A DNA stretch of 62,748 nt, filler included. It is 13 parts of 13 records of this genome, joined end to end, with 100 filler letters (N's around TTAATTAATTAA, not from the genome) between each part and the next. Parts side by side here need not be neighbours in the genome. Positions count along the whole stretch, not along the records: positions 59,290 to 62,748 come from SRR15195285_6206; 12 more parts are not named here. One strand, given 5' to 3'. Under the pieces are notes generated by a model, which worked only from the letters and a program-made list of their open reading frames with translations, made no database searches and was not told the DNA's origin. The translations under genes were made by a program, and so were the position numbers. Positions 4,874 to 62,748 of the stretch are shown here, piece by piece. Position 1 is the first letter of the stretch; every line of letters starts with the position of its first letter.

Positions 4874-4973
4874 NNNNNNNNNNNNNNNNNNNNNNNNNNN
4901 NNNNNNNNNNNNNNNNNTTAATTAATTAANNNNNNNNNNNNNNNNNNNNNNNNNNNNNNNNNNNNNNNNNNNN
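4874..4973. other. Artificial contig-joining spacer (first of 12 identical spacers)
   Basis: 44 N + TTAATTAATTAA (stops in all six frames) + 44 N. Repeated at 9461, 13493, 17455, 23114, 27127, 30988, 36056, 40132, 45772, 49734 and 59190. Confidence 0.99.
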
Positions 4974-9200: not shown

Positions 9201-9318
9201 CGTTGTGCTCCGCCTCGCCGAAGAACTCGCCGGGCGAGATCCACCGTTCGTCCGCCCCAGGCTCGGCGCCGGCGCAGCAAAGCCCTGCCAGTGCGCTCAT
9301 GATCATCGCGGCGAACAT
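6282..9318 (-). CDS. Formylglycine-dependent sulfatase (family S1, arylsulfatase B/I/J-like), secreted, with an inserted PAN/Apple domain; 10 exons
   Basis: Signal peptide, PHIWMLLFDDYGW, CSPTRSALQSGR (CxPxR), GKWDAG, HIVHTPLQVP, FSTDNGGP, NNYPLKGGKMNNWEGGIRG, CLYNIKADPLE, C-terminal GGFWGWWIE*. Introns: 8139-8048, 7860-7780, 7734-7649, 7611-7529, 7508-7365, 7304-7202, 7161-7083, 6733-6641, 6534-6458. Includes a 20-nt micro-exon at 7509-7528. Confidence 0.92.
6458..8139 (-). repeat. Pair of homologous introns (intron 1 at 8139-8048 and intron 9 at 6534-6458) in the sulfatase gene
   Basis: GTAAGTGAAAATTCTCTGCGTTTGTTAGCCG vs GTATGTGAAGCTTCTCTGCGTTTGCTAGTCG (26/31 identical). Further matching blocks GTTGC.TCTA.TG and GCGGCA..CT..GTGT.G.AG. 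Both follow exonic ATC. Confidence 0.8.
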
Positions 9319-9560
9319 CGCCAGCACGATCCCTCGCGCCGCCGCGGCGATCCGTCCGATCCGCACAGACCCGCCAGGCCGTCCGTCCGCACAGCGCGAG
9401 ACCCGCCAGGCGCCCCATGTGCCCACCAGCTGCAGCAACAATCAGGTCTTCGAATGCATGNNNNNNNNNNNNNNNNNNNNNNNNNNNNNNNNNNNNNNNN
9501 NNNNTTAATTAATTAANNNNNNNNNNNNNNNNNNNNNNNNNNNNNNNNNNNNNNNNNNNN

Positions 9561-12500: not shown

Positions 12501-13492
12501 ACTTCGTCTGCCCGCTTGTAAGTGTTGTGCTATGGTCATCACAACCCTCACAAAACTCCTGACTATCGTCCGGGATCTTGCCTATTGGACATTTTGTACA
12601 AAATCCAGCAGCGCCGGCATGACCGTCTGGACACACTTCGCAGGCAGTTTGGTTGACATTCGGAGCTTTGCCGAGGTCACAGGTTTCACATGCAGTCGTA
12701 TTTGCTGACCTATATTTACCGTCCGCACAGGGCACGCAAAGCGTCGGAGTTTCATCTGAGTTTGGTGCTTTGCCCTCAGAACACGTTTCGCATGCAACTC
12801 CGTCCACAGTGACACTACCGGTGGGACACTTGCGGCAGATATGGTTCGGCAGGGAGATATTGCCTGCAGCTGTGCTAGCTGAAATTTCCCCCGGAGAGCA
12901 CGCTATGCATTGGCCAGTGGATGAAGCGCTGCCAGGAGGACACTCCTCGCAGGAACTCCGATTGGGTGCTGGCTGCTTTCCTGAACTGCACGTTTGACAA
13001 ACACTTTGGTCGTCTACCGTGATCGCGCCCAGCGCGCATGCAGCGCATCTCCCAGTGATAGTTGCTTCTCCCATTTCGCACTGGACGCACACTGTTCTGT
13101 TCTGCCCCTGTTCCTTTCCTGGCGGGCAAACTTCACAGCGCGAAGAGCTCTCGTCAGGGATTTTGCCCTCACCACACTCAGAGCAAACTCCGGCGTATGT
13201 CGTGGCCGAGCCACTCGGGCACTCCTCGCACGTGGTCCCATCTGATGCTGGCTGCGTGCCATCATCGCACTCGCCGCATCGTGTTTGGCTGTCCTGTGGA
13301 ATCTTGCCTGGGGCACACTGCTGGCACATTCCTGTGTTTGGTGTGGCCGTGGCCTTCCCAGCATCACACTCTGTGCAATTGTCATGCGTGCTTAACGGTT
13401 GCTTTCCAGCATCGCACACAATGCAGGACCCCTGATCCTCATCAGTAAACCTACCCGGTCCACATCCCTCACAGTTGCCTGTGGTGGTGGCG
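9561..13492 (-). CDS. Receptor-like membrane protein, copy 1 (partial at both ends): Cys-rich CxxC repeats of ephrin-receptor-like/GCC2-GCC3 type, ~9 TM helices, EF-hands and WW domains
   Basis: Frame open across the whole contig. CxxCxxGK repeats, GPLCAYC, hydrophobic helices with YYPLRRQRYWW and RPF motifs, EF loops DVDESGTISLNE, DADRSGEVDRDE, DSDRSGCVSFHE, DENGSGEIDFEE, and WW domain WEQATDPGSGRSYFVNPVDGTSSWLAP. Confidence 0.85.
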
Positions 13493-13592
13493 NNNNNNNN
13501 NNNNNNNNNNNNNNNNNNNNNNNNNNNNNNNNNNNNTTAATTAATTAANNNNNNNNNNNNNNNNNNNNNNNNNNNNNNNNNNNNNNNNNNNN

Positions 13593-16500
13593 CGAATGCT
13601 TCCTCCCAGTCGTCCGACGCAATTGCAATTACAACTTCCTTCAGCTCGTCAAAGCTTAGTCCTCGCATGCCATCGCGCATCTCGATGAGACCGAAGGCTT
13701 CTTGTGCCATAGCCAGTGACACTTGACTACCACCATTTCGCTCCCACCAGTCTGCGAACTCCTCGAAATCGATTTCTCCTGATCCATTTTCGTCGATCTC
13801 ATCGAAAATTTCAGTCAGACTTGGTGTGTATACTGTGACGGTGGAGGCGTCACGAGATATTCCTGCTCGCTCCAGAAACGGCCCGACAGCGTCGATGCCT
13901 GGTGCCAGCCAGCTTGAGGCTCCACTTGCTGGATTGACGAAGTACTGGCGGCCAGATGCAGGATCAGTGGCCTGCTCCCAGCTGTCGGACGCCACTGCGA
14001 TCATTATATCCTTGAGACCGTGGATATTGACGCCTGGGGTACCATCCCGTTGTGCAACGAGGTCGAAGGCTCGCTTGGCTAGTTCCAGCAAGCTACCAGC
14101 TCCGCCGTGGCTGGTCCACCACGTGCTGAACTCGTGGAAAGAGACGCTGCCAGAGCGGTCTGAGTCAATGCACGCGAAAATCTCCTCCACTGTGGGCACA
14201 CTAGCTGCCTGTGCCACCTTAGTGCTGACAGATGGTGCCACAGCACCGGGAACACCGGCTGCAGACGACTCGACTTCAAAGGGTGATGCAAGCGGGTTGA
14301 TCATCCCGGCCACTGAGCCAGTTCCCGTGCGGACCCAGCCCGAAGGCGACTCAGTCCAGCCGTGCTTGTGCAAGTTTTCGACGACCTGCTCACGCTCGAG
14401 CCGGATGCGCTGCGTACGAGCTTCGGGAGGTTCATCGAGCTGTGACATCATTGTCTTCTGCTTGTCATGCCAGTCGCGAAGTCCGCTGAGGATTTGGTCG
14501 AACTCGTCTCGGTCTACCTCGCCAGACCCGTCCGCATCAAATTTTGTGAACAGGTCCGTTGCCACCTCCCTCATTTCGTCGGCCATACCTGTGCGGATGG
14601 TGCGGATTGTCCACCAGTCCAAAAATTCGTGCAGACTAATCGTTCCCGACTTATCGATATCAATTTGCTCAAATACTGGAAGCTTCACACTCGCGATTCC
14701 AATCTGTCCTAGTTTTGCCAGCACACCTTTCTTCTTGTTGGCATCTACCTCGAGATCCTCCACGAGTTTGCCAACCTCTGCCAACGGATCGCACTCGTCT
14801 CCAGACATGTGTGACCAAGCTGTCTTCCATCGGTCGCGCGCGATCATACGCGTGATATTGGCTGCTGTGCGGCTTTTAGATTGTGCTGTAGCGAGTAAGA
14901 CCAGGCATAACAAGATTGCAGTCATTACCCGGGCGACAGTGCCTGTCGTGACCTTCAAGGTGGAATCTACGGCTGTAACAAAGTCATTGTTGATGCTCAC
15001 TGTGAACAGGCTCATCAACAGCAGCACACTGAAGGCGTCCAGCTGACTTTCATTCAGGTGCTTGAAGGGTTGCACGGTTGCTTGAAGGCAGTTGTACAGC
15101 ATGAGCAGCAACACCACCAAGATTCTCCAATCCGCAACTCCAAAGGCCACGTCAGTTCGACGGTTTCGGCTGTTGTAGACAAATGCAATTGCTGTGGGAC
15201 GAACGATCCAAACGACCGCCCACCAGTATCGCTGTCTGCGAAGAGGATAGTAAATTACGCTTAGGTAGTCTCGTGCTGCGTACTCAGCACTGTGCGAGTC
15301 TGCCCAGTCTTTGGATTGCAGCACGACTGCCCCCTGCTCGAAGCCATATTTGAGGTAGGCCTCTATCCGGAGCAGCTTGGAGTGTGCATCCATTCTCTCT
15401 GCCATCTGTTTGCACAGAATCGATGGTAGAGCAAATGCAAACGTGGCGAAGATGAGCACGGCTAATGTCAAGTACACGTAGTAATCGCCTTTGCGGCACG
15501 ATTCAGAAGGGTCGACTTTCAGATGACCGACTGACGGCGAGAGGTCGTCTCTGCAGTAGAACAGACTAATCGCCCGCAAATTAATTGCAAACAGCGAGGA
15601 TTGCACTGCAAAAAACAGGGCCATTTTACCTTGCCAAGGAGCTCTCTTCCATAGGCCTGCCAAGAAGACAACGCAGACCGTGGCACAAACATTGTACACC
15701 GGAATTGAGAACTTCAACAGCCAATCTGTATAAAAATGGCCCGTGCTGATACACTTCCCGTCCGTCTGATCTGGTGTGTCCGGACTCATGGACACTGCTC
15801 CTGCAAGCTCCGTCACAAAACTGAGTTCACCGAAGGTTCGACTCGGCAGAAGAACCATGGTTTGGACGAAGAACAATGAGATACCAATGATGCTAGAGCT
15901 GTTGTGGATGTCACAGTCACGGCCTGTGAGAATGCGCCGCGATTTGAATAGGAAGAACAAGCACATCAGCAAGTACATGCCATACGTCATGACAAAACTC
16001 TGCACGTCAAACTGCTCGCACAAGACACAGCTCCCGTCGACCTTCACGTAATGTTTGTCTGGACGACCGTCTACACCGTCCCAGCAGTACGTGCACAGCG
16101 GTCCTTCTGAACCCTCTCGACACGCGTTGGGGGAGTCCTGTTGTACGAAGGGGTCTCGGTCTAGTCCCTCGGGTGGGCCAGCATCGCAGTACGCAGTCTT
16201 CTGGTGCTCACAATACCCGACGCAAATTTTCTTCGACAAACAGTGAACCGGTCTAAACAACTCTGGGTTGATCGTGCTAGTGGTGGTGGTGGTGTGATTC
16301 ACATTTATCCAAAACCCGGCTTCGGCGTATATGTTGTTCGAATCTGCCGGACAGACCGCACCAGTTGGGCACTTATCGCAGCACGTAAGGCAGATCGAGT
16401 TTTCGTCTCCGTTGGAAGTTCCATTGTCATCGTCGGCAAAACGTGAGTAATTCAGGAAGTAACCATTTTTACAAACACACCTGGTCGCGCCGGCTCCACG

Positions 16501-17454
16501 TGTTGTGCTGTGCGGTGGGCATTGCTCACAATTGTTCTGTGCTTTATCTGGAATTTTGCCTTCTGCACAGGTTTTGCATGATCCTGTGGCCCCAGCCTTG
16601 CCTTGTGGACACACTTCACAGTCAGTTCGATTCGAATTGGGTGCTTTACCGACAGGACACTCTATGCATGCAGTCGCATTTCTTGACCTATATTTACCAT
16701 CTTTGCACTCCACGCATTGCGTCGGACTTTCGTCGGAGTTTGGTGTTTTGCCCTCAGAACACACTTCGCATGTAACCCTATCTGCAGTGATACTCCCAGT
16801 TGTACACTTGTTGCAGGTCAGACCGTCATCCACTGGCACTTGCCCTGCAGGGCATGGACTGCATTCGCCAGTAGACGAAGCGCTGTCAGGAGGACACTCC
16901 TCGCAGGCACTCTTGTTGGTTGCTGGGTGTTTTCCTGCGGTACACATTTCACAGCTACTTTGGCCATTTTTCGTGATCCATCCACTGGCGCACGCAAGGC
17001 ATGTCCCAGTGATAGTTGCCTCTCCCGCTTCGCACTGCACGCACGCTGTTCTGTTCTCCGCTTGTTCCTTCCCTGGCGGGCAAACTTCACATCGCGAAGA
17101 GCTTTCGACCGGAACTTTGCCCTCATCACACGGAGAACAAACTCCGGCGTATGTCGTGGCGGAGCCAGGCGTGCAGTCCTCGCACGTAGTCCCATCTGGT
17201 GCTGGCTGCTTGCCAGAATTGCACTCACCACACCGGGTTTGACTATCCTGTGGAATCTTGCCTGAGGCACACTGTTGGCATATACCTGTGTTTGGGATGG
17301 CCGTGGCCTTCCCAGCGTCACATTCTGCGCAATTGTCGTGCGTGCCTAACGGTTGCTTTCCAGCATCGCACAGCATGCAGTCCCCTTGCTCGTCATCGGT
17401 TATCTTGCCCGGACCACATGCATCACAGTTGCCTATGGTGGTGGCGCTTCCGAC
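13593..17454 (-). CDS. Receptor-like membrane protein, copy 2 (partial at both ends), homologue of copy 1
   Basis: Same architecture and collinear with 9561-13492. TM, EF and WW regions are very similar; the Cys-rich and juxtamembrane regions are more divergent, with indels. Confidence 0.85.
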
Positions 17455-17554
17455 NNNNNNNNNNNNNNNNNNNNNNNNNNNNNNNNNNNNNNNNNNNNTT
17501 AATTAATTAANNNNNNNNNNNNNNNNNNNNNNNNNNNNNNNNNNNNNNNNNNNN

Positions 17555-21781: not shown

Positions 21782-23213
21782 ATGCCTGAACGCCGAGAGA
21801 AACGCTCCACTCCGCCGTCCCCACCGCCACGTCTCTGCCAGAGCGCGTCCGACCCCCGCTCGCTCCACCTGCCTCCACACGCACCCCGCAGCCAGCCAGC
21901 TCCGGACACGCCAGCCTGTCTTTCGCGCAGCACCGCACGCTCCAGCACTGCCCCTGCTGCCCAGCGAGCACCGCAGGCGGCGGCGGCGATGCGCTAATAC
22001 GGTACCGACCGCGGCAGCCAAGATTGAAGGAAGATGGTCGCCACCCGCCGGACCCGGAGTGCCGTCCTGCGAGTCCGACTCGATCAATTGATGCAACCTC
22101 GTCAGGAGTTCTCATTGAGGCGTTGATCGCACGCAACTCCAGACTCGTCGGCGATTTGCATGAGACTGCTGAGAAATCGAGCGTCTCTTCAGTGTTGTCC
22201 ACCGTCCGAGTCATGAGTGCTTTTCGCATCCACCGCAGTTATGAATGGCATCAATTATGCGTGTGGCACCCGGTTGGGCTTCGCGTTGTTCTTGACGGGA
22301 CAAGTTCTATGATAGTTGATAGAGCAGCTGCCGAATCCAGGATAATGCAGAATGGTACTATTTTCCAGATCAGAATCCACGAACATTGAAAGAAATTTGT
22401 CCCGGCGCTTGACTTGCATGTCGAGCACAGCTGTTCCGCTGTCCACGACAGACAGCGACATGCCCATCGAGCCGAAAGATCAAAATTTGACATGGAGCTC
22501 ACTCATCGAAAAAGTCAAACTGGCCTCAGGCCGCACGCTCACAAAGACTTATTTCACCGGGATTGCGCTGAGTCAATTCATCATTATACAGAGACTGGGT
22601 GACTGAAAGAGTGAAAGTCCTTGTGGGTCCGAGCCGTGATAGTTTAATTATTCACTGTGTCGGCCGGTCAGAGGTCATCGACTCGCTGGGTCAAAGCCAG
22701 AACGAGAGCGCCGGGCTGGCGGTGTTGAGCGCCTGTCCGGAGGCGCTAGCGCCGGACCGGGGGGCTACCACCCGCCGAGTGCCACATGGACGGATGCGTC
22801 GCGACATTTCCTGCACATTGATGCCCCAGACCACGTTCACCTCGAGGTTGGTAAGGATTACCGCGCGTTTTACCACAGTCGCCCGAGAGGGCACATGCGC
22901 CGCCTACCGGACGCATCGCAGGCGCACTGAGCGAGACAGGGCAAAGAATCGCTCTATACGGTGTTTTGGGCAGGTCTGAACACCCATGATACCCCCCCGA
23001 CCGACGAGCTCATCAAGCAGATCGCCAAAAGACGCACTAGGCTTTCCGTGCTGCTCCACACTGCTCGAAGCCTCCGGAAATTGGCTGGAGACAGCTCAAA
23101 AGGGCTCGAGGACNNNNNNNNNNNNNNNNNNNNNNNNNNNNNNNNNNNNNNNNNNNNTTAATTAATTAANNNNNNNNNNNNNNNNNNNNNNNNNNNNNNN
23201 NNNNNNNNNNNNN

Positions 23214-25173: not shown

Positions 25174-26976
25174 TCACGATGGCCAAACTAGACCACTGCG
25201 GCACGGCACAAGCCGTGCTGGCTCTGCGAGCCAGCTTGTCAGCGCCTCAAGCGCAGCTGTATTCCCCGCCTCGTCCCATGGCGTTTTCCAGCAGCTTGAA
25301 TTTGCTGCGACCTCCTGCCAGCTCGTTGTATTGGCCATCCACGCGCTGAAGATCGCCTTATTGTAAGTGGCCACGTCCATAGCGACTTTCGGGTAGTCCA
25401 CCTGGCTCAGGATCGAACGCTGCAACATCGCAACCGTGGCAGCATACTCCATCTCTCCTTCTGGCGTCGCCACGAGATTGTTCTTCTCATCCGGATCTTG
25501 ATCTAGATCAAACAGCTGATTAGGCACCTGAGAACCATTGCCCCATACAATCAGCTTCAGCGTGCTGGTGCTATTGCTCTGCTGCAGTTGCTGCACCACG
25601 AGAAACCAGCTCATCGCAATGTTCTTTCCATGAAACTGACTGACAATGAAGCTCGGACGGCGGCCAGAACTTTCCTGCCTCCCAGCACTAGCTGCCCCAC
25701 GCGCTAGTGGCGAGGAGGTAGATGCGACCATCAGTGGGAGCAGCGATGCGCCATCGAGGCTCTGTGGCCGCTGCGCTTCGCGCAACTGCGCCAGGTCAAG
25801 AATAGTGGGCATAATATCAATGAGCTGCGTCGGAGCTGAGATGACCTGTGCCCCTCCTGCGTGGCGAGGTACTCCAAATTGCCGTAGCTGCTGCAATGGC
25901 ACTGAAACGACCATCGGGACGGAGGCTGAGGCATCATATGGGGTCATCTTGTAGAACTGCTGATGCTCAAGCTGCATGTCGCCATGATCGCTCGTCACGA
26001 TCCAAACCGTGTTATCCCACGCGTCGGCAGCCTTCACAGCATCGATGAACGCGCCGACCATGGCGTCGAACTCAGCAATCATCGCAAGATAAATCCGTCG
26101 GATCCTCCGACGACGCTCTGTCGAGTAGAATGTTGCGGCAGTCTCTGCCGACGGAATGCAGCCTTTGAGCATCGAGCTCTGGAAGGCGCATGGGTGCATA
26201 TCTTCCAGCGGCTCCCACTCGGGGACTGACACCTTGTCCGGATCGATGGAATCATACCAGAACTGGCTCGTGACGTACGGCGGGTGGACGATGTTCATTC
26301 CCGCGTACGCAAACCACGGGATCTGGGTGGCTGACGCGGATGCGTTTGCGAGCCACGCGGTCGTGGCGGCGGTGGTTGCCCAGTCCGTACTGTGCGCGCT
26401 GCCGTTAGCTCCACGGCTCCCACCCGGCGTCACGGTACCATTGCTGGCACAGCCACCACCCGTGACCTCGCTGGCCCAGCCGCCGTTGCTGGTGTTGTAC
26501 GGGAACGCCACCTGCATCGTCCAAAGCGCAAGGTCCGTGTGCTGCGCGCTCTCGCGGTGGCCAGCGGTGTCCCAGTCACGCTTGCCAAAGACACCGACTT
26601 TGTAGCCCGCGCGCTCTAGCACCTGGTCAACGCGGTCGTCGTAGCCGGACGGCAGGCCCTCGTAGTTGTTGTACACCCCGCCTACACTGATCGCCCCGTG
26701 GCGATGCGGGATGTTCGACGCGTGCCGTCCGCTCCAGAACGTCGCGCGCGAGGGGCAGCAGACCGGGGCATTTGCATAGTGTCTTCGGAACTCAAACCCA
26801 GTAGCCTGCAGCTCGCGGATCGCAGGCAGAGCCAGTGCGCCACCCGAGTAGCCTGGTGCCCAGGTGCGGCCGTCCGTGCTCTCCACGACTAAGAAAAGGA
26901 CGTTCGGTCGGCGTGGGCGCGCAGCGGCGGCATCGTTGATAACAGCAGCACACGCAGCCAGCGTCAGCAGCAGCAT
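25174..26976 (-). CDS. ARSK-like: Arylsulfatase K-like S1 sulfatase, secreted, intronless
   Basis: Signal peptide. PNVLFLVVESTDGR, APVCCPSRATFWSG, YNNYEGL, FGKRDW..GH, TSDHGDMQLEHQQFYKMTPYDASASVP and QLFDLDQDPDE parallel the ARSK motifs (SDSFDGR, PICCPSR, WNNFKGL). Confidence 0.85.
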   Translation of the reverse strand: MLLLTLAACAAVINDAAAARPRRPNVLFLVVESTDGRTWAPGYSGGALALPAIRELQATGFEFRRHYANAPVCCPSRATFWSGRHASNIPHRHGAISVGGVYNNYEGLPSGYDDRVDQVLERAGYKVGVFGKRDWDTAGHRESAQHTDLALWTMQVAFPYNTSNGGWASEVTGGGCASNGTVTPGGSRGANGSAHSTDWATTAATTAWLANASASATQIPWFAYAGMNIVHPPYVTSQFWYDSIDPDKVSVPEWEPLEDMHPCAFQSSMLKGCIPSAETAATFYSTERRRRIRRIYLAMIAEFDAMVGAFIDAVKAADAWDNTVWIVTSDHGDMQLEHQQFYKMTPYDASASVPMVVSVPLQQLRQFGVPRHAGGAQVISAPTQLIDIMPTILDLAQLREAQRPQSLDGASLLPLMVASTSSPLARGAASAGRQESSGRRPSFIVSQFHGKNIAMSWFLVVQQLQQSNSTSTLKLIVWGNGSQVPNQLFDLDQDPDEKNNLVATPEGEMEYAATVAMLQRSILSQVDYPKVAMDVATYNKAIFSAWMANTTSWQEVAANSSCWKTPWDEAGNTAALEALTSWLAEPARLVPCRSGLVWPS

Positions 26977-27239
26977 CTGGCTGACAAATGCTAGGAGAGC
27001 GGCTGGCCTCGGCGCGTGCTGTCGCCGCGCGGCTCATCGCGGCGCGCGCTGGATGTGTGATTCTGTATGCCGAGGGCCCATGATCCCGGGTACGTAACGT
27101 AGTACAGTACGCAAATTCAGCCTATGNNNNNNNNNNNNNNNNNNNNNNNNNNNNNNNNNNNNNNNNNNNNTTAATTAATTAANNNNNNNNNNNNNNNNNN
27201 NNNNNNNNNNNNNNNNNNNNNNNNNNCGCGATTCCAACG

Positions 27240-30838: not shown

Positions 30839-31375
30839 GTGGAGGTGAGTGGGAAGCTTCCGACAGTGTGTTGTGCCACTGTTGTTGGTTCTTCTTGCTG
30901 ACCCGCCATCGAGCACCGTACGTACCGATCGCGCCGCGCGGTGCGCCCTCAGCCGGACGCGCGCCCGGGGCGCGGCCGCGCGGCCGCNNNNNNNNNNNNN
31001 NNNNNNNNNNNNNNNNNNNNNNNNNNNNNNNTTAATTAATTAANNNNNNNNNNNNNNNNNNNNNNNNNNNNNNNNNNNNNNNNNNNNGGGGGGGGGGGGG
31101 GGGGGGGGGGGGCGCAGGGGGATGAGCCCCTGGCGGGGCTCACAGCAACGCTAGTTAACAAATGTATCGAAATGTATCCAAATCATCTGTCCAGTAACGC
31201 TGCGTGTAGTTTGCAGTCAACGTGTGGCGGCGTTGTGGCAACAATTATGACACTACTAAAGCCAGGCAGCTAATGGAGAGGAGACAATCGGTTCGTGCGC
31301 CGCTCGACGACGCGTAAGGCGATCCCGCGTCGATTACGATGCGACATACATTAGATCATTTAGCTCCGTTCCCAT

Positions 31376-34300
31376 TCATAGCGGCGTGTACTTTTCCACA
31401 AATTCTGTGACTGGTCCGTAAAATTCTTGACCAACAGGTATTCGGTGGCCTTCGTTGTGCTCGAGTCGCTGCGGCGAGATAATGCTACTCTTCCCTGAAC
31501 GATCTCGGCTTATCTGTAGTTCGCTTATCAATTGCTCCGTTGCGGAGAACACCTCGTCAGCGCGATCATAAACGACAAGTGTCGGGCAGTCGCACTGTGC
31601 CTGATATCCTGCGGCGTAGATTGGCGAAAATAGCAGAACCCACTTCGCGCGTAGCCTGTTGGCGAGTTGTGCGGCCATTGCGCCCCCTTGCGAAAACCCG
31701 ATGATGCCTACAACTGCTGTTGATGCCGGCTGGTTGTCACTTCCTTTTTCGTTGCGATTGCTGTCCTGTTCGTTGCCGAGCAGGTCTTCAATGTAAGCAA
31801 TCGACTCGTTCAACCCGATCGGGGGCTGGTCGTTTCCTCCGTCCTCGTCGGGGTACGTCCACCAACCGTAGCTGTCATTTTGATCGAGCCCTTCAGCAAA
31901 TTGTGCCGCTCCAGAAGTCTTGTGTGGGCCATTAGGTACCACCATTTGGTATCCAAGACGCTCTAATATCTCAGTTCCAAGCGGAGACTGCACCGAGATT
32001 TGCTGCTGGAGTACAGTGCTGCTGGTGCGGTACCCATGCAGGCATAACACGCGGCCACGCGTGGCCTGACGTTGAACTACATCTGGCTCGCCTTGACTGA
32101 GCTGCTGTGCTAGCTCCGAAATGGTCGGATTCTTTGATAAAACGAACGGCGAAAAGTCGCGACCAAGAAATCGCCGTAGTCTCTGCGAGAGTCGGAGGGA
32201 CAAGAGGGACGTCACTCCGAGGTCATCGATGCCCATGTCTGTAACTAGTTGTGATAGATCAACCTTTAGTTGCTCCGCCAATTCCTGCAGCAGAAACAGA
32301 CGCACATCATCCTCACCGCGCACCACAATGTCCGATACACTTGCAACGCGCGAGTAGTGCTTCAAAATTGCGCCCGGTGGTGGCATGCCGAAGATATAGT
32401 CCGCCGCTTCTGTCATGTCGGCTAGTGCCTCGACCATCTTGTCAACGCTGCATCGATGGAAACCGGCTGGTGCTGGTGGCTCAAACCAATGGCCATCGAA
32501 AAGTGGTGGCACGAAGACAACCCAAGACGCATGGCCTGCCTGAGCGCGCTCCCAGGAGAGTGTAGTAGCTTGTGCTGATGGGCCTGCTCGGCATGAGTGC
32601 ACCGAAGGGAGAAGCACATCTATGCTTGCCAGCGTGACACATGATCCAGAACCTGCACAGATGGGCTCGAAGCTGTCAACATGGCCTGGACCAACACTGC
32701 AAAGCATCACCGTAGCTTTGCCCAGTTCGGCTGGTGCTTCGTCCCCTGGCAGTAGAAGCTTCGGTGTAGTTCCTACCTTCTCAATCGCGTTGAGCATCGC
32801 GGTAACCAAAGGGTTCACTTCGGCGGCTAAAACTAGCACATGCGATCCTGGCTGTAGAGTCGCACCGCACAGTTGGCTGGCACGAGGCGTGCCTTCATCA
32901 GGATAATCTAAGAACCATGTGCGCCCGTTGTTGATGTATGGTGGAGCCGAGATATCAAGCAACGGTGCAATGCATCTGTCATCGACGGTTTTTACAGACA
33001 GCACAGACAACATCAAAGCTGGAAGCGACACTGACCATGCTCTGCCACGTGACTGCCAGTTTTCGTTGCCGTCACCAACGACCATCAGCCAAACCCTGCC
33101 AGTCCATGGAAGCTCTTGTTGCAACGCAAGTAGCAGCGTCTCCACGCCAGGTATACTCTCCTCTTCACTGCCAACCACCAAGACCACTGAACGTAGTGGA
33201 ATCCTTTCGACCGGCTCACCAGACCATGTGCAGACCTCTGGCGTGTCCAGCTGGCGTGCCAGTGCTCCTGCGTGACTACTAGCACATGTGCCTAAAGCGA
33301 TTACTCTTGGTATTGCAGCCATGTTCTCTGCAGATGATGGTGCATAATTGCGGTGCTGTACACGTAGAGGTTCAGGAGGTAAAACATCAAACGGTCGCAA
33401 TTCTAAACCTTTCAAAGTGAACAATGGAACATCTGAGAAGATATGGAAATCTAGCAGAGATGTGGATTCGTCTGCTGTCACGTTGACGTCCACTGATTTT
33501 TCTGGACACTGGGCGTAGAATTGAACGCAATTGATGCGCACAGGTGCGCCCTGGAAGCCTAGCGCTGAAACTAACGGAGCAATATGGAAGCACGCGTCTA
33601 TAGTCACGAAGTCCAGTAGAAAAGGACTTTCCCGATGAGCGACTGCACCGATACCCGAGTTTGGCGACTGCAAATGAACAGAGCTGAGGGCCTGAAAGCG
33701 ATGACCATAGTCGAAGCCTCCGTCAGCCATCTGGGCGTACAGCTGTTCCACAGGGTAAGCTTGATGTGTCGCCCCAATCCCACTATGCATATCAGAAATT
33801 ATGACATCATGTGCGTCATCTAAGCGCACGCCATGGCAGGTGCAGTGGGTGACCCACTCGCCTGATGGCGACCAGCTTGCAATCAAAATGTCAACACCCG
33901 TCTCGATTGGTGTAGCCGTAACGCGCAATGGTCGAGGCGCACCGCCATCTTCGAGCGGCAGTGCCTTGCTGAAGATTACATCCTGCAATTCCCAGCTTAC
34001 CCAAGCATTTGCTTGGCAAACTTCGGCAGCAAGCGCGACGTAGCCAGCGCCAGGAAATATCGGTTCACCGCGGTACCGATGATCCGCCAGCGGCTTCCAT
34101 ACCGGCTGTCGTAGATCCACGTGCCACGACTGTCTGCCGCAAGGCTCAAGCTTTGCGTAATCAAGCACCTTCGACAAGCTCGTAGTTCCAGTTCCATTCG
34201 GCTCATTGTTGCTGATAGCAGCTGTGGCAGGTTCGTGGTCTTCTTGCTCCGATGCCATTTGTTTGAGAGTGTTCTGGTCTGGCTTGCCTGACGCTGTGCG

Positions 34301-35938
34301 TGGAAGACCCTCTACGAGGTGTACAATGTGCTTCGGAACGTACAATCTTCCTAATTCTTGGCGGAGAAATGACCGCACTGCTGATATATCCACAGTTTCA
34401 TCGATGTTGCCAGTTTCAAAAAATGCAACCAGCTCGACTGGTTGGTGTTGCGTAGGTACGACCAGGCAGGCCTTAATTGGCATGTCACCGCCCACAACAT
34501 ACCGTTTCAACACTGCTTCAATGCTCTCGGGCTGAGTGCGGACACCGTGCACCTTCACCTGCCTATCCAAACGCCCGCACACTATCACTTCACCGTTGCG
34601 CCACTGTCCTGCGTCACCAGTCCTATAGATCCGCCCGTAACTTCTTGTATCAATGAACACTTGATCAGTCAGGTCTTGACGCCGCCAGTAGCCCTGCGCA
34701 AGAAACCCAGCCGGTCCGCCACCACCAAAGCAGATCTCACCAACCTGACCAGTTTTGACAGGCGATAGTGGATCTTCCAAATCGCCACCAGTCGTCTCTT
34801 CCATGATGAACACATCCACGTAGCTCTGCGGCACACCAGCGGGCACGCCGTCCGGATAATCGCGCAGCCGAGCTTCGTCACCTTTTTGGCATGCAAAGTA
34901 GGTACAGCCGGCCTCCGTTGCCCCGTACATATTCCACAGTTTGGCGTGCAAGCCTGGCGTCGCTAGAAACGCTTCAGCCGTACTAGTGAACAGCTTCTCC
35001 CCTGAGCTGACCACGTGCTGCAAGCTACGCAGCGGATAGCTACCACTCGCCCCCTTGTGCTCATCCAGCAGCAGGTTGAGCAACGTCGGCTGAATGACGA
35101 CTGCATGGATGCTCTCTTTCTCAATCGTCTCCGATATGTACTGGACGTTCTTATGGCCACCAGGTGGTGGAATAAAGAGACACCCACCCACCATATTGGC
35201 TGGAAACAGGTCGTAGAGCGAGACGCTCCACACGTAGGAGCAGCGGAGTAGGCAGCGCGAAGACGGATTCAGCTCCAGGTCCTGGCAAATAAACCAGCTG
35301 CCGCCAGCCAGCCAGCGATGATCGTAAACGATACCCTTGGGAACACCAGTCGACCCACTGCTATAGAGCAACAGCGCGTTGTCATCCACAGTAGATTTTC
35401 CCAGCATAAGCGCCCCGCCGTCCTGGCCGCCCCGCACAACGACTAACCCATCCGCAACGCTTGTCGGGAAGGTGCCCATAGGCAGGCCCAGCTCAGCTGC
35501 CAGCGCCGCCAATGGCGTATCGCCTACCTCACCTATAACCGCACTGGGCTGGGTCTCTTTTGCCAGCGTGCGCAGTCGTGCAACCTGGGTCTCTGCGTCG
35601 ATCGGCACGTAGCCACACCCAGCCATCAGCACGCCCCACACGGCGCACACCTGCGCCAGGCCCTCTGGCAGCACGATCATTACCCATCGGCTCCCGCTCC
35701 GCGCGCCAGCACGGACCAGCTCCTGCGCAATCTGGGTGACATGGGACCACATCTCGCTGTAAGGCACTTCCCGCCGCACGCCATCAACCCGCTCTCCCTC
35801 CGGCAGCACCAGTGCCAGCGCTGCCGGAGTTGCGTGCACGTGCTGCTGCAGCATGTCCAGGATCGTCGAGTCGTTCGGAAATGGTGGGCGAGGCCCATGG
35901 TTGATCTCCAGCTGACGAGACTCGTGGGCAGCCGCCAT
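31376..35938 (-). CDS. Single-module NRPS/PKS-like enzyme: adenylation - PKS dehydratase - degenerate KR - carrier protein - FSH1-type serine hydrolase
   Basis: A-domain motifs AGCGYVPID, YSSGSTGVPKG, YGATE, GEICFGG, YRTGD, GRLDRQVKVHG, SGK. DH motifs HRYRGEPIFPG, YGHRFQ, DACFH. Carrier LGVTSL. FSH1 motifs VLCLHGY, GFSQG, GHRIP. Intronless. Confidence 0.9.
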   Translation of the reverse strand: MAAAHESRQLEINHGPRPPFPNDSTILDMLQQHVHATPAALALVLPEGERVDGVRREVPYSEMWSHVTQIAQELVRAGARSGSRWVMIVLPEGLAQVCAVWGVLMAGCGYVPIDAETQVARLRTLAKETQPSAVIGEVGDTPLAALAAELGLPMGTFPTSVADGLVVVRGGQDGGALMLGKSTVDDNALLLYSSGSTGVPKGIVYDHRWLAGGSWFICQDLELNPSSRCLLRCSYVWSVSLYDLFPANMVGGCLFIPPPGGHKNVQYISETIEKESIHAVVIQPTLLNLLLDEHKGASGSYPLRSLQHVVSSGEKLFTSTAEAFLATPGLHAKLWNMYGATEAGCTYFACQKGDEARLRDYPDGVPAGVPQSYVDVFIMEETTGGDLEDPLSPVKTGQVGEICFGGGGPAGFLAQGYWRRQDLTDQVFIDTRSYGRIYRTGDAGQWRNGEVIVCGRLDRQVKVHGVRTQPESIEAVLKRYVVGGDMPIKACLVVPTQHQPVELVAFFETGNIDETVDISAVRSFLRQELGRLYVPKHIVHLVEGLPRTASGKPDQNTLKQMASEQEDHEPATAAISNNEPNGTGTTSLSKVLDYAKLEPCGRQSWHVDLRQPVWKPLADHRYRGEPIFPGAGYVALAAEVCQANAWVSWELQDVIFSKALPLEDGGAPRPLRVTATPIETGVDILIASWSPSGEWVTHCTCHGVRLDDAHDVIISDMHSGIGATHQAYPVEQLYAQMADGGFDYGHRFQALSSVHLQSPNSGIGAVAHRESPFLLDFVTIDACFHIAPLVSALGFQGAPVRINCVQFYAQCPEKSVDVNVTADESTSLLDFHIFSDVPLFTLKGLELRPFDVLPPEPLRVQHRNYAPSSAENMAAIPRVIALGTCASSHAGALARQLDTPEVCTWSGEPVERIPLRSVVLVVGSEEESIPGVETLLLALQQELPWTGRVWLMVVGDGNENWQSRGRAWSVSLPALMLSVLSVKTVDDRCIAPLLDISAPPYINNGRTWFLDYPDEGTPRASQLCGATLQPGSHVLVLAAEVNPLVTAMLNAIEKVGTTPKLLLPGDEAPAELGKATVMLCSVGPGHVDSFEPICAGSGSCVTLASIDVLLPSVHSCRAGPSAQATTLSWERAQAGHASWVVFVPPLFDGHWFEPPAPAGFHRCSVDKMVEALADMTEAADYIFGMPPPGAILKHYSRVASVSDIVVRGEDDVRLFLLQELAEQLKVDLSQLVTDMGIDDLGVTSLLSLRLSQRLRRFLGRDFSPFVLSKNPTISELAQQLSQGEPDVVQRQATRGRVLCLHGYRTSSTVLQQQISVQSPLGTEILERLGYQMVVPNGPHKTSGAAQFAEGLDQNDSYGWWTYPDEDGGNDQPPIGLNESIAYIEDLLGNEQDSNRNEKGSDNQPASTAVVGIIGFSQGGAMAAQLANRLRAKWVLLFSPIYAAGYQAQCDCPTLVVYDRADEVFSATEQLISELQISRDRSGKSSIISPQRLEHNEGHRIPVGQEFYGPVTEFVEKYTPL

Positions 35939-36156
35939 TGTCCCGCGTACCCGGCGCTCGCCGCCCGATCCACGCGACACAGTTTCCCGCCCCCTGATCG
36001 AAAGCTGGGGCGCTCAGCCACCCCCAGCTGCAGCACCCACCCCAGCCCCGCGAGCNNNNNNNNNNNNNNNNNNNNNNNNNNNNNNNNNNNNNNNNNNNNT
36101 TAATTAATTAANNNNNNNNNNNNNNNNNNNNNNNNNNNNNNNNNNNNNNNNNNNNT

Positions 36157-40073: not shown

Positions 40074-40375
40074 CGCGGCTGCCCCCGGCAGAGTCAGCGC
40101 AGCCTGCCCTGCCCTGCCCTGCCCTGCCCTGNNNNNNNNNNNNNNNNNNNNNNNNNNNNNNNNNNNNNNNNNNNNTTAATTAATTAANNNNNNNNNNNNN
40201 NNNNNNNNNNNNNNNNNNNNNNNNNNNNNNNCCTCCACAAGAATCCAACCCAGCCTGTGATAGCGAGGGGCAGAAGGCGCGGGCGTGCGTCATGGCTGCC
40301 CGATGAGGCAGTCAACACGCGTGTGAGCTGGTGCCAGCAGCACTTGATCTTGAGTGCCCTGTCCTGTTTTTGCAG

Positions 40376-45771: not shown

Positions 45772-46423
45772 NNNNNNNNNNNNNNNNNNNNNNNNNNNNN
45801 NNNNNNNNNNNNNNNTTAATTAATTAANNNNNNNNNNNNNNNNNNNNNNNNNNNNNNNNNNNNNNNNNNNNGCCCTCTCGATCTTGGCGTGACACAGGGC
45901 ACAAGGGCCTTATGCCCTGTGTCAGCGTTTGCGACATGGTTTGCGGAAGTATTCGAATATAAGTCATATTGAATCTGCAAATCTGGGCACTGTGTCTTGG
46001 TTTGGCGTTCAGTCATCTGCTTTTTTCCGCACACCACAGTTTAGACTACACATGCAAGGACGCAGGGACGTGCAGGCAGCCCAGTGAGACTCACAGTCTC
46101 ACTCAGGCCTCATCGATCGCACGTTCCAACATCTTCTACAGTACAGTACCTTCCCCGGTATGAATACTGTATATCATAATCTGAGATCCTCACCAGGCAT
46201 TTTAGAATTTCTTGAGGTCGCGCGCGATGAACTCACCCAGGCAGGTGCCCAGTCGGACGGACGGAACATTTTCAACGGAACTCGGACTCCGATCGCGATG
46301 CGATGCGCGCGCGCCCTCCACCCCGGTGCCGTGCAGGGAGCTCGGTTTGGCGCGACGATCGCTGCTCGTGAGGGCGCCACACGAGCCGCGAGGAGAGGGA
46401 GAGTTCCTGCCCTACCTGCACAT

Positions 46424-49431: not shown

Positions 49432-49833
49432 GGGATTCTTGCGAGTTCTAGCTCGTGAGGGCCGACCTCGGGTGGTGACGGCGGCGCTAATCGTGAGCAA
49501 ACGCCGTCGCCATATGCATATGCATGGGCAAGCTGGCTGTAGGGTCGCCGTGCTTCTAGTGCTCTCCACGCCGGCTGTCATGTGGATCTCCCGCTGAGCG
49601 GCGTGCACGCACCCCGCCGTCGGCGCGTGCGTGGTACACACACCGACGATACCCGCCGCCGCAGGTACCAATTGCGAATTGGTCAGCAATTGGTACAGTA
49701 CCCATCCAGTCAAATCCTGCCGTATCGGCTAGANNNNNNNNNNNNNNNNNNNNNNNNNNNNNNNNNNNNNNNNNNNNTTAATTAATTAANNNNNNNNNNN
49801 NNNNNNNNNNNNNNNNNNNNNNNNNNNNNNNNN

Positions 49834-58904: not shown

Positions 58905-59848
58905 TGCTGCCGAAGAGACGAGAGCTCTCGGCACTCTGCCACAGACCGACACCGCTCCAAGCGGCGAGATTCAGCGCAGATTGCCGGCGACGAACAGATG
59001 CCTCTTGCTCGAAAGCTGCCAGCGCAGTTTCCGTCTAGTCGAATCGCGGACTCCTGCGCATACGGGGACCCACAGTTGCCTTCGCGCCCTCGCGCCACTT
59101 CGGCGATGTCCTCTGCCTCCAGCCTGGGCGGGCGCTGCGTGGTCCACACCCCCGGGAGCCTCCCAAATGCCAACGGCCGTCGTCACTCCNNNNNNNNNNN
59201 NNNNNNNNNNNNNNNNNNNNNNNNNNNNNNNNNTTAATTAATTAANNNNNNNNNNNNNNNNNNNNNNNNNNNNNNNNNNNNNNNNNNNNCCGGAAACCCC
59301 ACCACCCCCACCGGAGACCTCTGACTCTATAGGCAAATATGTTTTTATGTTCGTTTTTGTTTTGGGGTTATGCTTGTTTCATTACATCGACCAAAAAACG
59401 GATGGATGCTTGAGCGACATGCTCAAATGTCTGCACAAGGATCACGGCTAAGCATAGTTGGGCAGTAGTACTGTCACTTTGGCGTGGAGCCATTGCATTG
59501 CAATGTTCGAAACACACAATGACATGTTGTCCTAAACTGCATTCTATTATCCCTAGCACTATGTAAGCCTATATCCGTATGTAGCCAGTAGCAATGAGCT
59601 ACCGAAAACAAATGGGCTTTTGTGGTCGAATGGTGGTTGCTCGTGTGGGTCGTGGAAATGTTCGCAAGCTAGGGTATCCACGTCGTTGGCAATGTTTCTC
59701 TGCATGATGACCTCACCTATTACGTGCATGATCTTAGAGCTGCCGCAACCCGGACCGAATTGCATTAGGAACTCTCAGTGCGCAGCAACTCGTCGCTACC
59801 AGCTGCAGTTCGTTCCCTCAATCCATACGCTACGGTCGATCGGTTAGG

Positions 59849-62614
59849 TCAATTAGACCTGAGCGTCATAACGAACCGACTGAGAATTTCTGTGTCCTCC
59901 GTGTCGAATGGGTACCTGGCGGTGGCAATCCAGCGGATTGGTTCCTGTTAGAACTTGCGAATCACAATGGGTGCATAAAGACCAGAGATTTGGCGCACCA
60001 CTGGGGGTAGTTCGTATTCCTGTACACACCATTCGCAATATCATTCAACGTTGTTCCTACATGCCCGCGGTGCATACAGCACAAATGATTGTGTATGAAG
60101 GTAGTGGGCGTACCATATCTGGTTCTGAACATTGTAGTGCCAGCCGCCTTCTTCGATCCAATGCTCGATGAGCGAAGTCGTGTTGTCCTTCGTAGAGTTG
60201 TCCAACGCACTAGGAAATGGCGATAGCAGCCCTGCAGACACCACCGGCACATCCAGCGAGACGATCTCCATCTCAACCCCAGCGGGTAAAGAGTCACCAT
60301 CCTTCGCGTCAGCATGTTTATAAACTAATGCACCATCTGGTCCGAGCGCGTGCAGGTGTACTGCGCCATGCTCTACAACATCAGTCGGCGCAACGTCACT
60401 TGAGCCGTAGTAGCGCAGCTTCCACCCGCTTGGCTCGGTAGTCGCAGTTTTGAATGAAACCCACAGCGCCTCCGGCAAGCGGCTGGCAGTCTTGTTAACC
60501 GCTGAGACATTCAGTTCGAGCCCTGTTGCAGTCAGCACTACTGAGGTGAAGATCCTCTGAGGGGCACCGTTTGTTATGTAGAGGGGTGCAGCGAACTCAG
60601 ACTCGGTGGCAAATGCGCAGCTGTCCGTGCTCCGCCACAGTTTTGTCAGGCTCGGCGAGTGCACCCCCCATCCACCAAAAACATCGCCACCGTATGCAGA
60701 GCTCATGTTTGGTTTGGCAAAATTGTGGCACCCAATCGTCTCCGTCGCACCGTCCGTGTCGTTGAGGCAGTTGCCAGTGTACAACGAATCAAATGCAGTG
60801 AAGTTGTGCTCGGACAGAGTCTGGTACCTAACCTGCCCAAGCCTCGCATCACTGGACAATTTACCACCCACTTGGATCCGATCTTTTTCGTACTTGACCG
60901 AAGCCACGGAGCCATCAGAAGCAAATGCGATAGTGGCCGCATGAGCTTTGCAGTGGAACTCCCTATGCAAATCGCCCACCAGCTCCAATTGCTTCATCTG
61001 TTCCTCGCGCGCAGCAGCCAGCTGCGTTGAGGACAAGGCAGCGAGTGCGTCTAGTAGCTCCGAGCGGAAGGCACCATGCTGACCAGCTAGATTGAGGTTG
61101 AGTACAGCGTTTTTTACGTACGAGCGCTGCTCCTGCCAGCTCTCAATAGTCAGCTGGTAGTTCGCTCTGTTCAGATTCTCTTGCAGCTGCTCGTTGCTCC
61201 AGTTGCCATAATCACCTAGATAAAAAGTCGTGTCAAGCCCCCACGTGTGCTCTGGTATGAGTGACAGTAACCGGTCAAAACGGACGAAGTCGATGGAGCT
61301 GACGTTGCAGCGGCCCGCTGAAATGCATGCAAAGCGGCGACGGCCAACCTCGCGGAACTCGCTGTTCTTACGGGGATCTGAGGCAGTTGTCAGCGTACAG
61401 CGAGTCAAGTGCAGTGGAGTTGTGCTCGGACAGAGTCTGGTACCTACCTGTTGGAATTCCGTACAGCCAGGTGTCACCGATTTCCTGCCGCACAATGGGC
61501 AGCAGGTGGCGCTCGTCTTCGGCCTGTGCGAAGAAATCGTCAAAGTTCGATGCAAAGACGTGCGCTTCCGGGTGCTCGCTGCGTAGCATTGCTATGGTCG
61601 AGTTGAATATGTCAGCGGATGGACCAGAGTTGTCCCTATTCCTGCAATAGCAAGAAGTACGGTGCGCCAACACACAATGAGTGGGTGGACTGAAACTCAG
61701 GCCTGCAGCGAGCGGCGCGCCACACGTTCCCAAGCCGACTGCTCAAAAGTATCGGAAGGGCGGGCTCACCAAGCACAATATAGCCCAACCCCAGAAGGCA
61801 GCACGTGTAGACCACTACCGTATCCATGGTCTGCCGTCATCAGGACCTCTGCCCGAGATGCCTCGTCGACCCAACGGAAAACGCCCATGTTGCCCTTGCT
61901 GGGAGTATGGCTGCCTGGAAGAACCGGGTGCCCAACCGTTGACCCTCCAGAGCCAAGCGAGATATACTTTACGCCATGCTTGTTGAGGAGAGGGAGGATG
62001 GCCCGGGACATGCCAGTCTCATCGCGCTGAGAGAAAGTCCTGGGCCGCCGCACGCCCAACTCTTCAGCCAGACGCGAGCTAATCGCCAGGCTGGCCTCGA
62101 ACTGGGATGCATCGTAGCTCTCTGGACAGCTAGAGTGTGGAAACGCCTGAAAGAATATGTCGCCCTGTGCCACGGCTGCTTTGAACTGTGCAATCGTCGT
62201 TGCGTTGGGACAGCTCAACAGTAGGTCGCTCGTGTGGCCCACGCGCCAGTCGTTCACGCCGGACTTGGCGCAGTCCAAGAAGAGAGCAACTATCCATGGC
62301 TGCGCCATGTAGATATACCGATCGCCCCCTGCCGCACGCGTAGCATCGGCCATCGCTGCCGCGCGCGGAAAAAACACATTGAAGTACTCGGATGTTACGT
62401 TGGCGGCCAGTGGCATGCAGCGCTCGCCGTTTGGGGAGAACAATCCCTCGCACCGCTCGGGCCCACCAGTGCCGTCGTTCCAGGAGCGCTCATTGAAACC
62501 GACGTCCAAATGGTTCGAGAAGACGACATGAATCTTGGTCACTTTAGCAGAGGTGGTCGCCGTCGTAATCGTCGCCGCCAACCACATGGCGATGGCGCCT
62601 TTCGTGAACGACAT
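59849..62614 (-). CDS. Secreted DUF5054 / GH38-N-like glycoside hydrolase; 5 exons
   Basis: IHVVFSNHLDVGF, QRDETG, FRW, DNSGP, IGDTWLYGIPTDP, EHTWG, SWQEQR, NKTASRLPEALW, NQIWNTNYPQWYPF. Introns 61769-61642, 61447-61378, 60113-60020, 59998-59916. Includes a 21-nt micro-exon at 59999-60019. Confidence 0.85.
60762..61447 (-). repeat. Dispersed direct repeat: intron 61378-61447 is a copy of coding sequence 60762-60832
   Basis: Manual alignment gives 63 of 70 intron positions identical plus one 1-nt gap. Confidence 0.95.
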
Positions 62615-62748
62615 CGCGCGCGATAACAACACGATCGGAGCGCGCCGCCCCGCCGCCGGCGCCGGCGCGCGCGCGAGGCCGCATGCGCTGATCGGCACAG
62701 GCGCCCACAGTAGACCCACTCGATGGCCGATGCGTCCGTCCGGTGAAC

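Follow-up and report, generated by a model that had tools for sequence, protein, structure and literature searches.

A spliced intron in a marine protist DUF5054 gene that very probably originated as a copy of a downstream exon of the same gene

The window studied here, a stretch of DNA of 62,748 nt, carries on its last contig (59290-62748) a DUF5054 gene with five exons on the minus strand, the second intron of which (61378-61447, 70 nt, phase 1) matches a segment of the third exon of the same gene almost base for base. Taken as a whole, the observations are, in our judgement, probably best explained by a recently gained, functional intron that arose as a cis copy of the gene's own exon 3 through templated insertion. 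The two parts of this explanation deserve to be graded separately. Namely, it is very likely that intron 2 is a gained intron copied from the gene's own exon, while the chances that this happened by DNA-templated insertion in a single step are only somewhat better than even. The case is a rare one in that a template for the entire intron can be pointed out in the gene itself, while the sources of gained introns are almost never found. The source organism is a marine protist, present in many seawater runs, and its nearest protein is P0012, labelled as coming from a EukProt single-cell assembly.

Intron 2 and its counterpart in exon 3

On the minus strand, exon 2 (61448-61641) ends with ..GDTWLYGIPT and the G of an Asp codon, and is followed by intron 2, with the sequence GTAGGT..CTGAC..CAG, and then by exon 3 (60114-61377), which contains the DUF5054 domain. 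The counterpart of the intron is a 71-nt segment of exon 3 (60762-60832, minus strand, GTTAGG..CTCAA), which encodes VRYQTLSEHNFTAFDSLYTGNCLN and has CAG before it at 60835-60833. When the intron (61447-61378) is aligned with this segment (60832-60762), 63 of the 71 columns are identical, the remainder being 7 substitutions, all of them transitions, and 1 gap, which is in line with the tally of a first-pass annotation of the sequence (63/70 positions with one gap) and is borne out by both the repeat search and the alignment. In particular, the repeat search of 59500-62748 returned this pair as its one direct-repeat family (60763-60830 and 61379-61446, 68 nt, 91% identical, ungapped), and a MAFFT alignment with 20-nt flanks placed the similarity in columns 18-90, i.e. 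CAG plus the intron through ..CCTCA, where 66 columns are identical, 6 are substituted and 1 is a gap; the seventh substitution of the earlier tally is column 91 (G vs A). The flanks of the two copies are at chance level (5 of 17 columns upstream, 7 of 21 downstream), and CAG directly precedes both copies. In other words, the copy spans exactly the intron, as the annotation had also proposed. Its placing of the source about 550 nt downstream fits the 545 nt of unique exon that lie between the copies; measured from start to start, however, their spacing is 616 nt.

With up to 3 mismatches tolerated, the window has exactly two occurrences of the 28-mer that the copies share, while none of 100 dinucleotide shuffles gave a match, and the 62.7-kb window contains only 2 copies of the 70-nt sequence. 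A blastn comparison of the whole window with itself yielded 8 pairs in total, among which the intron-exon pair is the sole short one outside two mutually similar contigs, save for one 35-nt palindrome. When the read-through peptide was used as the query, 5 of 6 candidates matched, all of them alleles of this one locus. The GC content of intron 2 (0.56) is the same as that of the exons, and the repeat search of 59500-62748 found no inverted repeat in or around the intron, terminal ones included. An 8-nt perfect palindrome, GGAATTCC, is situated at 61451-61458 (minus strand), 5 nt upstream of the insertion point, and may be there by chance.

The direction of copying can be read from the proteins. 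Namely, in a 6-sequence alignment of the gene and five homologues, residues Y184, Q185, T186, L187, F195, Y199 and C203 of the source segment, which is situated within the DUF5054 domain, are invariant, while the intron copy, read in the exon frame and compared with the homologues, has lost both conserved Phe residues and has a changed Thr and a changed Gly. Because the exon copy encodes residues that are invariant across homologues, we take it, on the strength of this comparison, that the exon copy is the original and the intron the derived copy. The source being a conserved coding segment and not another intron, the pair does not have the form that intron transposition by reverse splicing would give.

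Splicing could be followed in the contigs of four public runs placed on 60000-62748, namely X1 (DNA), X14 and X15 (RNA-library, metatranscriptome) and X17 (oligo-dT RNA). A 277-nt contig of X17 (record 24, 0 mismatches, depth 3.41) joins 61377 exactly to 61448 with 70 nt skipped, and this is the very RNA junction that the first-pass annotation had named as a check. The ends at the joint are CT..AC on the plus strand, i.e. GT..AG on the gene strand, and its position is ambiguous by 3 nt ('both = 3'). Another contig of the same run (record 25) skips the 128-nt intron 1 (joint 61640/61769, 'cut +1'). Excision of intron 2 gives ..GDTWLYGIPT-DPRKN.., a motif that is contiguous in homologues (GDTWLYGxPxDPxKN), while its retention leads to a stop at residue 373 of the gene model; the earlier statement that excision restores DTWLYGIPT-D-PRK was thus correct. 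The unspliced form of intron 2 is present in independent contigs of X1 (record 3, 1314 nt), X14 and X15, as well as in the read-through peptides P0007-P0010, and because it is found in these independent samples (X1, X14, X15), the intron is not an assembly artefact. Intron 2 is a real, spliced and functional U2-type GT-AG spliceosomal intron. The source segment in exon 3, for its part, is passed through unspliced by RNA-library contigs (records 11, 17). No intron-less DNA allele was seen in X1, the one DNA run compared, which contains the intron-bearing form only. As a side remark, the stretch upstream of the gene (62640-62748) is very GC-rich and draws many unrelated, loose-ended contigs in all four runs; depth is uninformative there.

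Relatives, alleles and splice signals

Was the intron gained in this lineage, or was it lost in others? Fifteen metagenome loci encoding relatives were examined, and an intron at this site is present in none of the 12 that cover it: 10 of these read GDTWLYGxPxDPxKN without interruption, while L008 reads GDTWNYGVPSDPLKN and L003 reads ..GVPSDSRKN.. across the site. Ten homologous proteins (P0002-P0006, P0011, P0015, P0016, P0017 and P0029), some of which duplicate the metagenome loci, are uninterrupted there as well. The nearest intron-less relatives, P0017 (83% identity), P0029 (81%) and P0011 (70%), are continuous across the site and each of them enters non-homologous residues elsewhere, which suggests that their sequences derive from unspliced genomic DNA. 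In contrast, P0012, a relative at 96%, begins with MLTTAS followed directly by DPRKN, i.e. with the last 15 nt of the intron in the exon-3 frame. As P0012 begins inside the 3' end of the intron, the intron is present in the 96% relative, with CTGAC and CAG in it. Since the relatives at 83%, 81% and 70% lack the intron and the one at 96% has it, gain is indicated rather than loss, and by these comparisons intron 2 is a lineage-specific gain that falls between relatives at 83% and 96% protein identity. The orthologues without the intron, for which the first-pass annotation had advised looking, do exist. What is more, ..PT is followed directly by DP.. in the relatives, and the intron does not look like a coding sequence that was intronized in situ.

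Other interruptions are present in the same neighborhood. In L003, a relative at 56% identity, the Tyr codon of GDTWLY, 14 nt upstream of the intron-2 site, is interrupted by another intron (L003:18-89, 72 nt, GT..AG). This other intron contains CTGAC, has an 11-nt inverted repeat without mismatches close to its ends, and finds no match elsewhere within the 1.5-kb contig of L003. P0029 (81%) is uninterrupted at the sites of both intron 1 and intron 2 and carries, between DPRKN and SEFREVG, a 39-residue in-frame insert which is absent from all other homologues and is probably an unspliced intron. Counting the window itself, there are three different interruptions within approximately 30 nt in related lineages.

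Intron 2 exists in two lengths. The 70-nt form, starting with GTAGGT, is found in the window, in one X15 contig and in P0007, while a 71-nt form with one extra base, starting with GTGAGGT and collinear with the GTTAGGT of the exon, is found in X1, X14 and P0008-P0010. The latter is also the form of a divergent strain (P0008, P0010; 94-97% identical in exon 2), and for this reason the 71-nt form is probably the older one. In that case, donor position +3 probably first underwent a T>G transversion to the usual GTGAG, with the gap seen in the window a later deletion of 1 nt. Consequently, the notion in the first-pass annotation that the gap yields the donor GTAGGT is true of the window strain, but in most alleles the intron has 71 nt and starts with GTGAGGT, the gap being a later change. 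The companion notion, that a CAA>CAG substitution yields the acceptor, is not needed. Namely, since the boundaries of the insertion slide by 3 nt, the insert may end with ..CTCA just before the G of the target, and the acceptor G can be the target's own G and not a mutation.

The motif CTGAC (61389-61393, minus strand), the A of which is situated 12 nt upstream of the last intron base, is a plausible candidate for the branch site, with an upstream TTGAC as an alternative candidate. The exon copy reads CTGGC at this place, the G>A change that gives CTGAC is common to the window and the 96% relative P0012, and introns 1, 3 and 4 are without CTGAC. A further glimpse of the history of the intron comes from P0010, a peptide of the strain that is 94% identical, which ends with ..LHCI where window-type alleles end with ..LHCT. 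This implies, with the nucleotide deduced from the peptide, that at one of the 7 sites that differ, the P0010 intron still has T as in the exon, and hence that divergence from the source would have accumulated stepwise after the insertion. In this sense, natural alleles preserve early steps in the life of the intron, namely two different changes at donor position +3, the origin of CTGAC, and a site at which a sister strain has kept the exon-like state.

Two features of the pair were considered as possible signals and rejected. As regards the all-transition pattern, 13 of the 15 single-base differences between populations across this stretch are transitions, which makes transitions the ordinary spectrum here and deprives the pattern of mechanistic meaning; RNA editing as its cause fails for the same reason and, in addition, because T>C and A>G are mixed on one strand. 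As regards the reading frame shared by the intron and exon copies, it is true only of the 70-nt allele, and it is not meaningful because the exon-like start GTTAGG puts TAG at once in the upstream frame.

Possible mechanism and alternative explanations

In the mechanism that we propose, approximately 70 nt of the gene's own exon 3, 616 nt downstream, would have been inserted in direct orientation into ..ACAG/AT.. of a continuous exon. Namely, a broken or stalled 3' end would anneal at the downstream CA/CAG microhomology, copy approximately 70 nt and rejoin, either by synthesis-dependent microhomology-mediated end joining or by a replication template switch, the product being the same in both cases. 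Annealing at a short microhomology, copying and rejoining is the pattern described for the former pathway in the relevant part of PMC7407515. The copy would by chance have begun with GT after CAG, and its last A would have abutted the G of the target, so that a donor and an acceptor were possibly in place at the beginning, and the insert, 71 nt long and frameshifting, would thus have been spliceable from the outset. Later, donor position +3 would have changed from T to G in most alleles, with the one-base deletion following in the window strain, while a G>A change would have made CTGAC and other sites would have drifted. The exact coincidence of copy and intron fits such a course, because only inserts that start with GT and are able to form AG survive as functional alleles.

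What we infer is that a break occurred, which enzyme acted on it, and that everything happened in one step. The insert itself has an identifiable template, the segment 60832-60762 of the same gene, and is flanked by CAG on both sides, upstream as the final 3 nt of exon 2 (61448-61450, minus strand) and downstream at 61378-61380 (minus strand), where it doubles as the acceptor and where the X1 allele has TAG (61380 G>A, plus strand). The junctions share in this way a short direct repeat (microhomology), which at 3 nt is weak; short direct repeats have been proposed for new introns in Daphnia, as outlined in PMC3443670. The first-pass annotation had already suggested intron gain by templated insertion from the same gene, and the source in the gene's own exon, the splicing, the absence from orthologues and the 3-nt repeat all agree with it, while the mechanism as such is a reconstruction.

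That said, a number of points speak against the account given so far and should be kept in mind. Splicing is known from one contig, of depth 3.41, in one run (X17), and the X14 and X15 contigs over the intron are all unspliced; the latter may reflect DNA carry-over or intron retention, and we do not take them as absence of splicing. The microhomology of 2-3 nt is weak evidence for any specific repair pathway, and CAG is a generic exon-end consensus. In Drosophila, according to the treatment of flanking repeats in PMC3443670, conserved introns have such repeats approximately as often as gained ones. The genomic nature of the relatives' sequences would follow from reading frames that enter non-homologous sequence, and not from DNA-level data. 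Furthermore, three introns or inserts so close together may point to a more complex local history, including sliding or replacement. Finally, the search for copies covered the window, and a closer, paralogous source or further copies of the 70-nt sequence may be present elsewhere in the genome.

Could the template have been RNA instead, i.e. a fragment of the gene's own transcript or cDNA captured at a double-strand break? Source and target do belong to one transcript and have the same orientation. In addition, among the relatives at 81-83%, P0017 ends with ..SLYTG followed by unrelated residues, and P0013 starts with unrelated residues followed by CLNETQ.., a pattern suggestive of an intron within the region homologous to the source; if that intron were ancestral, an uninterrupted copy would need a spliced template. 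However, all other homologues, including the 96% relative, are contiguous at ..YTG(N/G/H)C.., and because they are uninterrupted there, the intron of the P0017/P0013 lineage is most simply a gain of its own. As a single exon of the window contains the whole source, a DNA template and an RNA template would give the same product, and the insert has no poly-A or other mark of a retro-copy, all of which leaves an RNA template unlikely. A different route would consist of two steps, namely a tandem duplication of approximately 687 nt, reaching from the target site through the source, and then a 616-nt deletion between CAG sites that leaves a 71-nt tail. Of the ways in which exons give rise to introns, the tandem duplication of exon segments is the one best documented, with 188 events in Table 1 of PMC3443670 and further cases among those described in PMC4974935, and the CAG/CAG repeat could mediate the deletion. 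Two rare events would be required, however, with an intermediate that bears a frameshifting 687-nt duplication, and no duplication allele was found in the contigs of the four runs or in the protein searches. Since one templated insertion yields the same product, we regard the two-step route as quite improbable.

It is also conceivable that the source was a paralogous DUF5054 gene elsewhere in the genome, given that several DUF5054 homologues co-occur in marine samples and that the search for copies covered the window. Still, in the exon frame the intron yields the residues ..SEHN.., ..TA.. and ..NCL.., which are specific to the gene's own exon, where the nearest other homologues read SEDN/TT/GCL (P0001) and SSDN/ST/HCF (P0002), and the protein searches gave no closer match; a paralogous source is therefore very improbable. 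Least credible of all, and to our minds practically negligible, are the possibilities that an old intron was overwritten by gene conversion from the exon, that the insertion is a pseudogenising one, or that the assembly is in error. Conversion could appeal to the distribution of the differences, as the copies do not differ at all over the 28 nt that follow the donor, and all 6 internal substitutions fall in the 28 nt after these. But this clustering is borderline (p ~0.05 by a scan-statistic estimate), and no relative has an intron here, be it among the 12 covering loci or the ten uninterrupted proteins. A pseudogene and a misassembly are ruled out by the splicing and by the independent contigs.

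Gene, window and known routes of intron gain

The host gene was modelled from the window sequence together with homologues, and all its features are on the minus strand. The DUF5054 family assignment is given by a Pfam match in exon 3 (PF16477, E = 4.5e-28, 99.5 bits against a cut-off of 37.6, profile positions 5-284 of 291). Exon 1 (61770-62614) is an open reading frame with an ATG start at 62614-62612 and an N-terminus collinear with P0002, and is followed by intron 1 (61642-61769, 128 nt, GTGAGC..TTGCAG), the one skipped in X17 record 25. Past exon 3, homology alone points to an intron 3 (60020-60113, 94 nt, GTACGC..TACAG), at the position of which homologues are contiguous (NIWNTNYPQW), to a putative 21-nt micro-exon 4 encoding NTNYPQ(W) (59999-60019), and to a predicted intron 4 (59916-59998, 83 nt, GTGCGC..GCCAG). 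Exon 5 with the stop codon occupies 59849-59915, with TGA at 59851-59849. The spliced five-exon model has 796 aa without internal stop, is collinear with homologues, and shows 57% identity with the full-length homologue P0002 across 792 columns of the alignment. In the relative L003 (L003:1380-1485), intron 3 is missing and an intron apparently begins 5 nt downstream of the position of intron 4 in the window.

The window is made up of approximately 13 unrelated short contigs (3.4-9 kb), with 12 spacers of the form N44-TTAATTAATTAA-N44 between them (4874-4973, 9461-9560, 13493-13592, 17455-17554, 23114-23213, 27127-27226, 30988-31087, 36056-36155, 40132-40231, 45772-45871, 49734-49833 and 59190-59289). 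Arguments from neighborhood across spacers are not valid, because the window is a concatenation and not one continuous stretch. Two neighboring contigs, 9460-13178 and 13492-17132, are 71-92% identical along most of their length and are either paralogous or allelic; the repeat families D2-D6, D8, D10 and D12 fall in this pair, and its long open reading frames have no Pfam match. Elsewhere, a 1545-aa frame on the minus strand (31379-36013) contains AMP-binding, polyketide-synthase dehydratase, phosphopantetheine-binding and FSH1 serine-hydrolase domains, and by this domain content its product looks like a hybrid enzyme of the nonribosomal peptide synthetase/polyketide synthase kind.

Does intron 2 stand for something more general? 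The first-pass annotation had put it beside a pair of sulfatase introns and hinted at a general local-copy mechanism of intron creation in this lineage. The sulfatase pair could not be reproduced at E <= 1e-3, and the sulfatase open reading frames (8107-9441 and 25177-27033) are on other contigs. The repeat search and blastn gave no second intron-exon or intron-intron pair in the window beyond the two similar contigs and low-complexity repeats, self-comparison of the DUF5054 genes of the 15 homologous loci gave no analogous pair, and for introns 1, 3 and 4 of the host gene no source could be made out in the window. The general mechanism is thus unsupported, as neither the window nor the 15 loci contain another intron-exon pair. 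Intron 2 is a single case, and it shows no general mechanism by itself. We consider it unlikely that introns in this lineage are recurrently born by the copying of nearby pieces of the same gene into breaks, with GDTWLYG..DPRKN as a break hot spot, although the three different interruptions found there in related lineages could be a hint of it. If this were true, comparing every intron with its own gene would reveal many exon-derived introns and explain a part of the problem of missing sources. In any case, the present intron offers a testable model, in which a templated insertion starts by chance with GT and forms AG at the junction with the target, and it invites a simple screen in which the introns of any genome are each compared with the gene that harbors them.

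Among the known systems, introns gained in Daphnia by break repair are one counterpart. As reported in the part of PMC4202315 that describes them, Daphnia neointrons have a mean length of 77.7 nt, 88 of 90 would disable the gene if left unspliced, and most sources of the new introns are still unknown. A review that lists seven models of intron gain names, in its portion on break repair, mitochondrial DNA as the only identified source of filler (PMC3443670). Intron 2 resembles the break-repair introns of Daphnia, as far as these accounts describe them, in its previously continuous exon position, its short flanking direct repeat, its length of approximately 70-80 nt, its probable splicing right after insertion and the destruction of the frame upon retention. 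Unlike them and unlike the mitochondrial fillers, the whole insert here has a nuclear cis template in the same gene, and unlike the AT-rich neointrons of Daphnia, intron 2 has the GC content of the exons (0.56).

There is also a kinship with tandem duplication. Intron gain via tandem genomic duplication of an exon segment that contains AGGT reportedly goes back to Rogers (1989) and Hellsten et al. (2011). As in that process, intron 2 is a duplicated exon sequence of the same gene, its splicing restores the coding sequence exactly, and AG/GT-like sequences supply the splice sites. Unlike in that process, the copies are not adjacent but 545 nt apart, and the intron is the displaced copy alone and not the interval between two tandem AGGT sites. 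The duplication of AGGT-containing exon segments is well documented as a mode of intron gain, the potato RdRp gene being a case described in PMC4974935.

Ordinary genic sequence has also been traced as a source in Dictyostelium, where sources are reported for two of 98 gained introns (Ma et al. 2015, PMC4683709). One of these introns came from the coding sequence and 3' untranslated region of another gene and, in the paper's description of it, has no flanking repeats; in the same description, the authors state that the sources were not sequences of the same gene. Intron 2 is like this case in that ordinary nuclear genic sequence became an intron by insertion, and differs from it, so far as it is described there, in having the host gene itself as the source and a 3-nt repeat on its flanks. 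In Caenorhabditis, the relevant section of PMC9169325 reports that a source was found for none of 168 intron gains.

Introners constitute yet another class, known from Micromonas, Aureococcus and fungi. With introners, intron 2 shares a seamless insertion into a coding exon and the creation of a new intron position in a particular lineage; it would differ from introners as generally characterized in its copy number, which is two within the window, one of the two being a conserved exon, and it has no inverted terminal repeat. Introners and introner-like elements form multi-copy families, often with terminal repeats or target-site duplications, according to the portion of PMC8469720 devoted to them. 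A search of the open-access literature, with supplements and subscription journals outside it, returned no published case in which an intron had been copied from an exon of its gene that does not adjoin it. Set beside these systems, the gain of intron 2 is best filed as a variant of break-repair or duplication-based intron gain.

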